From: Hydrogenophaga sp.
Lineage (GTDB): Bacteria; Pseudomonadota; Gammaproteobacteria; Burkholderiales; Burkholderiaceae_C
Direction: 5' to 3'
Length of the DNA stretch: 64,000 bases
Assembly: GCF_030373245.1 (NCBI RefSeq)
Contig: NZ_JAUCZF010000008.1
Location: 49,865-113,864 of the forward strand
Shown here: piece by piece, positions 52,013 to 55,000 of the stretch
Layout of the letters: every line of letters starts with the position of its first letter
Position numbering within the stretch: position 1 is the first letter of the stretch
Made by a program: the position numbers and the translations under genes
The notes under the pieces: generated by a model
Databases searched by the model: none
What the model saw: only the letters and a program-made list of their open reading frames with translations
Told to the model about the DNA's origin: nothing

Positions 52013-55000
52013 TTGAACACCCCCCTGCCAGCCCACGCCTTCCCTGTTGATCCCGATGACGCCGGACAGCGGCGGGACCGCGCCCTGGAAGCGCGTGTGC
52101 GCGGTGCGGCCACGCTGTCGGTGCGCGGCGCCCGCACCCACAACCTCAAGAACATCGACCTCGACATCCCCAAACATGCCCTGGTGGTGATCACCGGTCT
52201 GTCGGGGTCGGGCAAGTCGAGTCTGGCGTTCGACACGCTGTATGCCGAAGGCCAGCGCCGCTACGTGGAGAGCCTGTCGGCCTACGCGCGCCAGTTCCTG
52301 CAGCTGATGGACAAACCCGACGTGGATCTGATCGAGGGCCTGTCGCCGGCGATTGCCATCGAGCAGAAGGCCACCAGCCACAATCCGCGCTCCACGGTCG
52401 GCACCGTCACCGAGATCCACGACTACCTGCGCCTGCTCTACGCCCGCGCCGGCACGCCGCATTGCCCGGAGCACGATCTGCCGCTGGCAGCGCAGAGCGT
52501 GGCGCAGATGGTGGACACGGTACTGGCCATGCCCGAAGGCACCAGGCTGCTGATCATTGCGCCCGTGGCTCGCGAAAAAAAGGGCGAATTCCACGACCTG
52601 TTCGCCGACATGCAGGCCCAGGGTTATGTGCGTTTCCGGCTCAATGGGGAAGTGGTCGAGGCCGAAGATCTGCCCGCCCTGAAAAAGACCGAAAAGCACA
52701 ACATCGACGTGGTGGTCGACCGCATCAAGGTGCGTGGTCACGAAACATCTGAAACAGCGCCGGACAACGAAACCAGCCTGGACGCCGGGCCTCCCCAAGG
52801 CCAGGCGTTACCCCTCGGGGGGCAGCGACCCCTGGAAGGGCGGAGCGTGGTGGCAGACAATCCCTTGCGTCAACGGCTCGCTGAAAGCTTCGAAGCCGCC
52901 CTGCGCCTGGCCGAGGGTCGCGCCCTGGCGGTCAACATGGACACTGGCGTTGAACAAGGTTTCTCCGCCAAGTTCGCCTGCCCCGTGTGCAGCCACAGCG
53001 TGGGGGAACTGGAGCCGCGGCTGTTTTCCTTCAACTCGCCCATGGGCGCCTGCCCGAGCTGCGACGGCTTGGGCCACACCGAGGTGTTCGACGCGGCGCG
53101 CGTGGTCGCCTTCCCCACGCTCAGCCTAGCCAGCGGCGCCATCAAGGGCTGGGACCGGCGCAACGGCTACTACTTCGCCATGATCGAAAGCCTGGCGGCG
53201 CACTACAAGTTCGACGCTGAAGCCCCCTGGGAGTCGCTGCCCGAGGCGGTGCGACAGGTGTTGCTCTATGGCTCAGGCGAGGAAGACATCAAGTTCAGCT
53301 ACGCGCTGGAATCAGGCGAACGCGCCGGCAAGAAGATCAGCAAGAAGCACCCGTTCGAAGGCATCATCCGCAACTTCGAGCGCCGCTACCGCGAGACAGA
53401 CAGCGCCCACGTGCGCGAAGAGCTCGCGCGCTACCGCGCCACCCAGCCCTGCCCTGATTGCCACGGCACACGGCTGCGCAAGGAGGCGCGCCATGTGTTC
53501 GTAGGCGAGGGCGAGCAACGCCGCCCGATCTACAAGGTCAGCCATGTGACACTGGGCGAATCGCTGGCCTATTTCCAGAACCTGCAACTGCCGGGTGCCA
53601 AGGGCGACATCGCCGCGCGCGTGATCAATGAGATCCGCCAGCGCCTGAAGTTTTTGAACGACGTCGGTCTCAACTACCTGAGCCTGGACCGCAGCGCCGA
53701 CACCCTGAGCGGCGGCGAGGCCCAGCGCATCCGGCTGGCGAGCCAGATCGGCAGTGGCCTGACCGGTGTGATGTATGTGCTCGACGAGCCCAGCATCGGC
53801 CTGCATCAGCGCGACAACGATCGCCTGATCGCCACGCTCCAGCACCTGCGCAATCTGGGCAACACGGTGCTGGTGGTCGAGCACGACGAGGACATGATCC
53901 GTTGCGCCGACCACGTGATCGACATGGGCCCGGGCGCGGGTGTGCACGGCGGCCATGTGATGGCACAGGGCAGCTGCGCCGAGGTGATGGCCACGCCCGG
54001 CTCGTTGACCGGCCAGTACCTGAGTGGCGCACGAGCCATCGCCGTACCCTCGCGACGTACGCCCTGGCTGCCGGTGAACAAAGCCGCTGCGGCGACCAAG
54101 GCCGCCCCGATCAAATCGCGTTTCCCCATGAGCCCGGCAGCCGAGCGCCGCAGTGCGCGCGAAGCACAACACATCGCCACGCTGGGCGAGCTGCAAGAGA
54201 TCCGCGTGGTCAATGCCACCGGCCACAACCTGAAGGGCGTGAGCGTAGCCTTCCCGGTCGGGCTGCTCACCTGCGTGACTGGTGTCTCAGGCTCGGGCAA
54301 ATCGACCCTGGTGAACGACACGCTGTACGCGGCGGTGTCGCGCACCCTCTACCGATCGCACGACGAGCCCGCCGAGCACGAAGCCATCGAAGGCATCGAG
54401 CATTTCGACAAGGTCATCAACGTCGATCAATCGCCGATTGGCCGCACGCCGCGCAGCAACCCGGCCACCTACACCGGCCTGTTCACCGGCATCCGAGAAC
54501 TGATGGCCGAAATGCCCACCGCGAAAGAACGCGGCTACGGCCCGGGCCGCTTCAGCTTCAACGTCGCCGGTGGTCGCTGCGAGGCCTGCCAGGGCGATGG
54601 CGTGGTCAAGGTCGAGATGCACTTCCTGCCCGATGTGTACGTGCCCTGCGAGGTCTGCCACGGCCAGCGCTACAACCGCGAAACGCTGGACGTGCAATAC
54701 AAGGGCAAGAACATCGCGCAGATCCTGGACATGACGGTCGAGCAGGCCCATGGCTTCTTCGGCGCCGTGCCCACGCTGCACCGCAAGCTGCAAACGCTGA
54801 TGGACGTGGGCCTGACCTACATCCAGCTTGGCCAGAGTGCGACCACCCTCTCGGGTGGCGAGGCACAGCGCGTCAAGCTGGCGCTGGAGCTGAGCAAGCG
54901 CGACACCGGCCGAACGCTCTACATCCTGGACGAGCCCACCACCGGCCTTCACTTCGCCGACATCGAACTGCTGCTGCAAGTGCTGCACCAGCTGCGCGAC

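Follow-up and report, generated by a model that had tools for sequence, protein, structure and literature searches.

Extra segment of Hydrogenophaga UvrA as a translated copy of a palindromic repeat family, patchily present at one loop across the genus

Background

In-frame palindromic repeats are a hallmark of the Rickettsia palindromic elements (RPEs; Ogata et al. 2000, as related in PMC10969869), and in-frame copies are likewise known for ERIC, QMITE1, and other repeats (PMC10969869). Repetitive extragenic palindromes (REPs) of the GTAG/CGTC type are also listed inside genes of many species, and are overrepresented in genes for replication and repair (Di Nocera et al. 2013, PMC3733652). Such REPs are found in uvrA of Thioalkalivibrio and in both uvrA genes of Opitutus terrae, and different REPs occupy about the same site of recB in two Xanthomonas species (PMC3733652). 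Here we describe a related case from Hydrogenophaga sp. (assembly GCF_030373245.1), in which uvrA carries in frame a unit of a GC-rich repeat family, called family A in the following. The gene lies in a 64,000-nucleotide stretch of contig NZ_JAUCZF010000008.1 (positions 49,865 to 113,864). This whole stretch is referred to as the window, and positions are those of the window unless a contig is named. An earlier reading of the window, made from its sequence alone and referred to as the original prediction, had proposed that a REP-type element was inserted within uvrA.

As far as the description of RPEs in PMC10969869 goes, family A is like them in being a short palindromic family found both between genes and in frame within many unrelated housekeeping genes, in placing its peptides where the fold tolerates them, and in having copies that decay with time. 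While RPEs are hosted by a reduced intracellular genome, the host of family A described here is a free-living bacterium with 65% G+C and a genome of 4-5 Mb. The family-A unit also differs in having 81-84 bp, three hairpins, and often direct tandem arrays, and the same loops are filled by different family-A copies in different species. RPEs enter this comparison by their published description only, and family A is taken to be unrelated to them in sequence.

With the GTAG/CGTC REPs, family A has in common that REP-type palindromes are translated in DNA repair genes (uvrA, uvrB, recB, and others for the published REPs; PMC3733652). These REPs are 20-40-bp single palindromes that are tagged and often exist as inverted dimers (PMC3733652), whereas family A is untagged, is a composite of three hairpins arranged head-to-tail, and has a copy number that does not track a Y1/RAYT-type gene (RAYT, REP-associated tyrosine transposase). 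[quoted passage not shown] Unlike MITEs, it is without terminal inverted repeats, and one clean comparison of a filled with an empty site gave no target-site duplication. Family A works like RPEs and intragenic REPs, yet it appears to belong to none of those families and has an architecture of its own. In the literature, of which the coverage was incomplete, the core DNA and peptide strings, the family-A repeat, and cases from Hydrogenophaga or Comamonadaceae were not found.

Results and Discussion

The repeat unit within uvrA

The long forward frame 51905-55189 matches UvrA sequences of the PDB (2r6f and 9gxk) at E=1e-141, and annotated homologues of the product of 52097-55189 carry the name excinuclease ABC subunit A. 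Compared with UvrA outside the genus, this protein has 43 extra codons between ...VVVDRIKVR and LRQRLAES, as the original prediction had stated, and the frame is intact throughout (Table 1). From its 5' end the segment consists of a diverged genus-specific acidic loop, possibly a partial module, one repeat unit, and two to three junction codons. The unit is found by the nhmmer profile of family A, is 75-81% identical to the three units of a tandem array elsewhere in the window (about 80% had been estimated by eye), and contains the 21-nt core without a mismatch, also as predicted. To judge from these alignments, the extra UvrA segment is a translated copy of family A, a non-coding, GC-rich repeat that is both interspersed and tandem.

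Not all of the 43 codons come from the repeat. Against the closest empty allele (G071; G numbers denote the genomes compared, with G000 for the genome described here), which has nearly identical flanks, the repeat-derived gain amounts to 93 bp (31 codons). Of the 43 extra codons, about 31 are therefore best assigned to the repeat and the remainder to the older acidic loop. The original prediction had given about two residues as typical for UvrA at this site. This holds outside the genus, where other genera of the order have DRLKVRA-DL-QQRLAES, but most Hydrogenophaga have an acidic loop of 8-10 residues (DGEEEGVNP). A compensated frameshift (-1/+1) within the insert, considered from the comparison of PLGGQRP with APSGGSDP, was ruled out; the difference is that of the 84-nt unit type, in which the right arm is 1 nt longer than in the 81-nt type.

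Table 1. Features of the uvrA insert and other family-A features mentioned in the text
Feature	Position	Strand	Basis or remark
uvrA coding sequence (CDS)	52097..55189	+	GTG start 52097 inferred from UvrA alignment; open frame from 51905
43 extra codons vs UvrA outside the genus	52736..52864	+	uvrA frame intact
Single family-A repeat unit, sense orientation	52778..52853	+	nhmmer C8:102642-102717, 50.8 bits, E=6.9e-13; alignment to array units
Hairpin 1: left arm GCCTGGAC (52776-52783), conserved loop GCCGGGCCTCCCCAA (52784-52798), right arm GGCCAGGC (52799-52806)	52776..52806	+	sequence; covariation across the family and across uvrA copies
21-nt core CCCCTCGGGGGGCAGCGACCC: hairpin 2 (CCCC-TC-GGGGGG) and start of 3' module	52811..52831	+	exact match
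3' module CAGCGACCCCTGGAAGGGCGGAGCGTGGTGGC, holding small hairpin 3 (CCC-TGGAA-GGG)	52823..52854	+	hairpin 3 read by eye only
Strand before the insert	UvrA residues 201-211		AlphaFold2 model, pLDDT ~88
Insert, no secondary structure	UvrA residues 215-254		AlphaFold2 model, pLDDT 27-29
Helix after the insert	UvrA residues 256-271		AlphaFold2 model, pLDDT 86-89
Tandem array of three 84-bp family-A units	14467..14721	-	Tandem Repeats Finder: period 84, 3.0 copies
Open frame with VF530/DUF2132 domain and array	14224..15012	-
Non-coding mosaic: part of hairpin 2 and two tandem 3' modules, without hairpin 1	31040..31122	+	below nhmmer threshold of the whole-unit profile
UvrA paralogue, 2260 codons, two UvrA-like halves	C6:252810-259589	-	repeat at C6:257969-258081, outside the window

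Architecture and distribution of family A

The host genome is a 3.86-Mb draft of 10 contigs with 65% G+C. It contains 81 copies of family A (nhmmer with the unit profile, E<1e-3), either solo or in head-to-tail arrays, and 24 exact copies of the 21-nt core; the core is thus repeated elsewhere in the genome, a point on which the original prediction depended. Several contigs end inside family-A units (C2:2-58, C2:549300-549351, C3:446229-446381, and C6:1-67), indicating that tandem arrays break the assembly. The true copy number is probably above 81.

The unit has 81-84 bp and consists of three parts: hairpin 1, hairpin 2, and a 3' module. In the consensus, hairpin 1 has an 8-bp stem around a conserved 15-nt loop (GCCGGGCCGCCCCAA), and its arms are highly variable yet complementary. 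Hairpin 2 reads CCCCC-TC-GGGGG, and the 3' module (CAGCGACCCGCGCAGCGGCGGAGCGTGGGGGC) includes a small third hairpin. Among 82 distinct copies from many genomes, 88.5% of the hairpin-1 positions pair, compared with 58.9% in shuffled sets and 29-45% when one arm is slid. The covariation score of 0.727 (0.208 when shuffled) was reached by none of 500 shuffles, and seven of the eight pairs have changed on both sides. The coding copies, too, keep hairpin 1 intact at the DNA or RNA level: 90.6% of its positions pair in 16 uvrA copies from different species, with both-sided changes in five of the eight pairs, and seven of eight positions are paired in the uvrA copy of this genome.

Features of other repeat classes were looked for in the unit. 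Terminal inverted repeats were not seen, as the unit ends GGGCCAGCC... and ...GCGTGGGGGC are not complementary and the palindromes are internal. Neither GTAG nor CGTC was found at the hairpin foot in the 81-nt or the 84-nt consensus unit. Pairs in inverted orientation (REPIN doublets) were not seen either; the units of a cluster follow each other head-to-tail at a period of 83-84 bp. Covariance models of Rfam gave no match at E<=1 on a three-unit array. Note that no stop codon exists in any of the six frames of the consensus unit, so that uvrA stays open after any insertion of a multiple of three nucleotides.

Family A is found in 23 of 24 sampled Hydrogenophaga genomes with 9-85 BLAST hits each, and is essentially absent by BLAST from 16 other sampled genera of the order. 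A scan of species-representative genomes for the exact core returned mostly Hydrogenophaga; further hosts are Variovorax, Rhodoferax, Polaromonas, Ramlibacter, Caenimonas, Acidovorax soli, and Comamonas testosteroni. Apart from a few metagenome-assembled genomes that are probably mis-binned, the hosts found for the family were Comamonadaceae only.

In-frame copies in other genes

Long frames over repeat copies that have a coding-like pattern of G+C by codon position were scanned against Pfam. An earlier filter based on the G+C content of third codon positions was too strict (uvrA itself was lost), and Pfam matches of the candidate frames were used instead. About 18 of the 81 copies are coding and lie in at least 12 genes whose Pfam domains extend to either side of the repeat. 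A further nine long frames over copies gave no Pfam match; they are regarded as spurious and serve as a control set. Coding copies score below intergenic copies on the profile, and most of those in sense orientation use the frame that yields the mildest peptide.

Besides uvrA, in-frame copies interrupt or separate the Pfam domains of a Mur ligase, Fmt, GlnE (three tandem units in antisense orientation), an XDH-type flavoprotein (two copies), two acyl-CoA dehydrogenases, an ABC-transporter ATPase, a biotin carboxylase, RecQ (in the zinc-binding subdomain), and a UvrA paralogue. The VF530 gene is also on this list, with the array N-terminal to its domain. By this survey, the occurrence of in-frame copies in many unrelated genes of one genome matches the RPE phenomenon, the analogy that the original prediction had drawn.

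Position of the insert in the protein

In the alignment with Geobacillus UvrA (2r6f), the insertion site falls between residues 230 and 231, within the fragment that has been crystallised as the UvrB/Mfd-interaction domain (3fpn_A, 4dfc_B). The in-frame copy occupies a surface loop that joins a strand to a helix in the UvrB-binding domain, and the domain named in the original prediction was the right one. In an AlphaFold2 model built from 115 homologues, with a mean predicted local distance difference test score (pLDDT) of 65.5, the strand and the helix are modelled well and the insert loop is predicted to be disordered (Table 1). The tolerant loop that had been proposed fits this model and the presence of one or two units at the site depending on the species.

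The frame used in uvrA gives a peptide rich in Gly, Pro, Ala, Ser, and Gln. In the second half of the unit this frame differs from that of the VF530/DUF2132 array, as had been noted before. Among six orthologues with the same type of insert, the insert is 67% identical while 400 flanking residues are 96% identical, which means that the peptide changes about eight times faster than its flanks. Metagenome homologues of UvrA form a decay series, with 3-residue deletions, loss of the half that contains hairpin 1, remnants of 37-40 residues, and also two-unit versions. On account of the modelled disorder, the fast peptide change, and the decay series, the insert is read as a tolerated passenger rather than a new functional module.

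Occupancy of the loop across Hydrogenophaga

The segment from DRIKVR to RLAES was measured in UvrA of 124 Hydrogenophaga species. Six basal species have 16 residues and no acidic loop, like other genera. The empty site, with the acidic loop only, is found in 100 species (23-26 residues), and aligning these relatives, as the original prediction had suggested, sets it apart from the 57 residues of this genome. Two species are intermediate (39-40 residues). A recognisable family-A unit is present in the other 16 species (49-80 residues), with two units in G049 and G140. The proposed REP-type element within uvrA is borne out: the insert truly belongs to the family, and the empty site is seen in relatives of this genome. 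Beyond the original prediction, these alignments indicate that the event is not unique to this genome and that the same loop is patchily occupied across the genus.

The cleanest case is G021, in which an 81-bp insertion lies between GTG and AAC compared with 98%-identical relatives. No target-site duplication was seen in this one clean filled/empty comparison (with G001, G019, and G024), in which the flanks of the 81 bp read ...GGTGTG and AAT.... Junctions of the uvrA inserts vary by 0-3 codons between species, and their stems are of several types. On a tree of the 124 UvrA sequences from which the loop was removed, the 16 filled alleles need 14 state changes. At least nine of these are forced by branches with support of 95 or more in the Shimodaira-Hasegawa-like approximate likelihood ratio test (SH-aLRT), and the filled species are not one clade. 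The filled state is no more clustered on this tree than in shuffles, and a smaller tree agrees.

Two other loops show what the uvrA inserts do not show as directly. RecQ (L284-L287) and Mur-ligase (L314-L321 and L335) loci were compared between this genome and related ones. In the RecQ loop, between YFGE and CGNCD, G000 and G013 have a sense unit with one set of arms, G012 has a sense unit with different arms, G011 has an antisense unit, and 20 other species are empty. In the Mur-ligase loop, between SARLG and FVIEAD, sense units with different arms, an antisense partial unit, and decayed remnants are found, and in G012 and G017 the loop is filled with an unrelated palindrome that has perfect 20-bp arms (GAGGGGGCTGCGCGCTCTGC...GCAGAGCGCGCAGCCCCCTC). 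As read from these sequences, independent insertions at the RecQ and Mur-ligase loops are unambiguous. The filled RecQ alleles also have an extra 'xY.GP' motif in common, which the empty alleles do not have.

Recurrent insertion and its alternatives

The patchy occupancy of uvrA, together with the different stems, orientations, and element at the RecQ and Mur-ligase loops, makes recurrent occupation of a few permissive loops the best reading. Family A would spread without terminal inverted repeats or target duplication. It would repeatedly land, or be kept, in a few protein loops that are permissive (those of uvrA, the zinc-binding region of RecQ, and the Mur ligase), and the copies would afterwards decay through substitutions and in-frame deletions, or be lost. 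The whole explanation, in which the translated copy in uvrA is a tolerated passenger that arises through recurrent insertion into such loops, is considered very probable.

Several points weigh against it. Nine of the 16 uvrA inserts have one arm type (CCCCGCC/GGCGGGG) in common, and one or two compensatory pairs separate the other arm types from it, a pattern that one old insertion with many later losses, or with transfer of the allele, could also have produced. The tree comes from a quick IQ-TREE run on one gene, without a recombination model for uvrA, and some allele transfer or loss may have taken place at uvrA alongside recurrent insertion. The overall quality of the AlphaFold2 model is moderate, as its mean pLDDT indicates. 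Neutrality is read from sequence, and an effect of the insert on UvrB/Mfd binding or on the mRNA is conceivable. An insertion mechanism and a target motif were looked for and none was found. Regarding the latter, target mimicry, with the empty site (GGAGGGCGTG joined to AACCCGCTTCGGCAGCGG) acting as a junction of two repeat modules, was not supported: when 97 empty uvrA sites were aligned locally with the module, the median score was 8 where the background mean was 7.4, and 42% of background windows scored at least as high.

Could the uvrA inserts go back to a single in-frame insertion early in the Hydrogenophaga radiation, with repeated precise loss and/or allele transfer by homologous recombination and with stems that diverged in place by compensatory substitutions? 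The shared arms and their near variants are what this would predict. A peculiar insert type is also common to G000, G086, and G138, though G071, the sister of G000, is empty, and the protein P0049 is intermediate between two insert types. An imported patch is hinted at in G021, which differs from its empty near-relatives in three codons upstream and, over about 120 nt downstream, resembles them slightly less. At 5-15% divergence, sliding-window identity was too noisy to detect recombination patches around the insert. However, the arm type CCCCGCC/GGCGGGG belongs to a common genomic subfamily that 50 of 131 genomes contain, mostly at loci other than uvrA. Because it is so widespread, shared arms are no proof of common descent, and shared stems were rejected as proof of a single uvrA origin. 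A single insertion also needs at least 9-14 losses, each restoring the uniform loop length seen in 100 species, and it does not sit well with junction positions that vary by 0-3 codons or with the opposite orientation, different arms, and different element at the RecQ and Mur-ligase loops. A single origin at uvrA is possible but appears unlikely. The draft state of the genome and the contig ends within the repeat would speak for an assembly artefact, or for a lineage-specific loop whose likeness to the repeat is accidental. This reading can practically be dismissed, as a 99%-identical protein from another contig (P0002) has the same insert, and so do the complete genome of H. crassostreae (P0010/G009) and 14 other species. 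These independent assemblies exclude the misassembly that the original prediction had named as a risk, and a chance likeness is contradicted by the profile match (E=7e-13), the exact 21-mer, and the intact reading frame.

Selection may alternatively have kept the insert, the peptide tuning the contact of UvrA with UvrB or Mfd, or the hairpin acting in uvrA mRNA or DNA (pausing, stability, or protein binding). The site lies in the domain of these interactions, and hairpin 1 is kept in coding copies with pairs changed on both sides. In addition, three of the 12 genes with copies are DNA repair genes (UvrA, the UvrA paralogue, and RecQ), which echoes the published REP excess in repair genes (PMC3733652). 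Intact stems are, however, equally expected from recently inserted hairpin units, and the peptide that would be selected evolves rapidly and is predicted to be disordered. In 85% of the species, sister species included, the insert is missing, and it shows decay and partial deletions. Such a co-option is considered improbable. Recurrent insertion also has a stronger form, which is considered rather unlikely. Here family A would be an active or recombination-driven element that prefers a few sites and re-enters the same surface loops of conserved genes (UvrA, a UvrA paralogue, RecQ, a Mur ligase, and others) in different species in either orientation, with its hairpin selected even in CDSs. If this were true, Hydrogenophaga would provide a natural system in which non-coding repeats create and re-create protein segments. 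DNA repair could possibly be modulated as well, in line with the published idea that REP-tagged repair genes favour mutator states.

Possible routes of mobility

The only Y1_Tnp gene (PF01797) of this genome (C2:131472-131798, + strand, locus L031) has about 250 codons. It is not flanked by family-A units, the nearest copy being more than 50 kb away. The gene also occurs in other genera and in G017, a genome that has no family A, and most genomes of the genus have a single copy of it. G003, G005, and G022, with 29-38 family copies each, do not have the gene. With neither adjacency nor co-occurrence, a RAYT/Y1 transposase was rejected as the mobiliser of family A. L031 looks like a conserved RAYT-like gene that possibly works for a different repeat family. 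A hairpin-based single-strand route (HUH-like) would be compatible with the absence of terminal inverted repeats and of target duplication, with the conserved hairpins, and with the tandem growth, and so would template switching or recombination between units; both routes are conjectural.

Implications

Translated palindromic repeats are confined neither to Rickettsia nor to reduced genomes, since a free-living, GC-rich genus of Comamonadaceae has them in at least 12 core genes. The comparison across the genus provides evidence that one small set of loops has been filled, vacated, and filled again in different species, with copies that differ in stem and orientation and even with a different element, a reuse at which the literature only hints. 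Many natural pairs of filled and empty alleles exist in culturable strains such as H. crassostreae. They can be used to study repeat movement, loop permissiveness, and the phenotypic meaning of the REP excess in repair genes. For genome annotation, it should be kept in mind that low-complexity inserts rich in G, P, A, and S in Comamonadaceae proteins are often repeat-derived.

Other copies in the window and in a UvrA paralogue

The array at 14467-14721 has the core twice exactly and once with one mismatch, where 0.01 matches would be expected by chance. It shares an open frame with the VF530/DUF2132 domain; the array covers residues 101-182 and Pfam VF530 residues 189-250. The partial non-coding copy that the original prediction had placed at 31040-31122 is real, but it is a mosaic of a different kind, without hairpin 1 (Table 1).

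In the UvrA paralogue, 1.5 family-A units (GRPDAGQPQGGAAPSGGSEPRAAGSVGVSSPDAGQPQGGAAPLGSVGA) are found in a beta-hairpin that lies about 30 residues downstream of where the uvrA insert would be by homology. The arms of the repeat hairpin there (CGCCCCGAC/GGCGGGGCAG) match those of the G021 uvrA copy exactly. Gene conversion between UvrA and this paralogue was rejected, because the paralogue insert is in a different hairpin of this domain. The repeat-bearing loop of the paralogue is itself variable in UvrA: it corresponds to a second loop of the same UvrA domain (window about 52930-52960), which varies in length in some Hydrogenophaga species (e.g., MEMDAPETPGAAPRE in G023, G006, G016, and G011).

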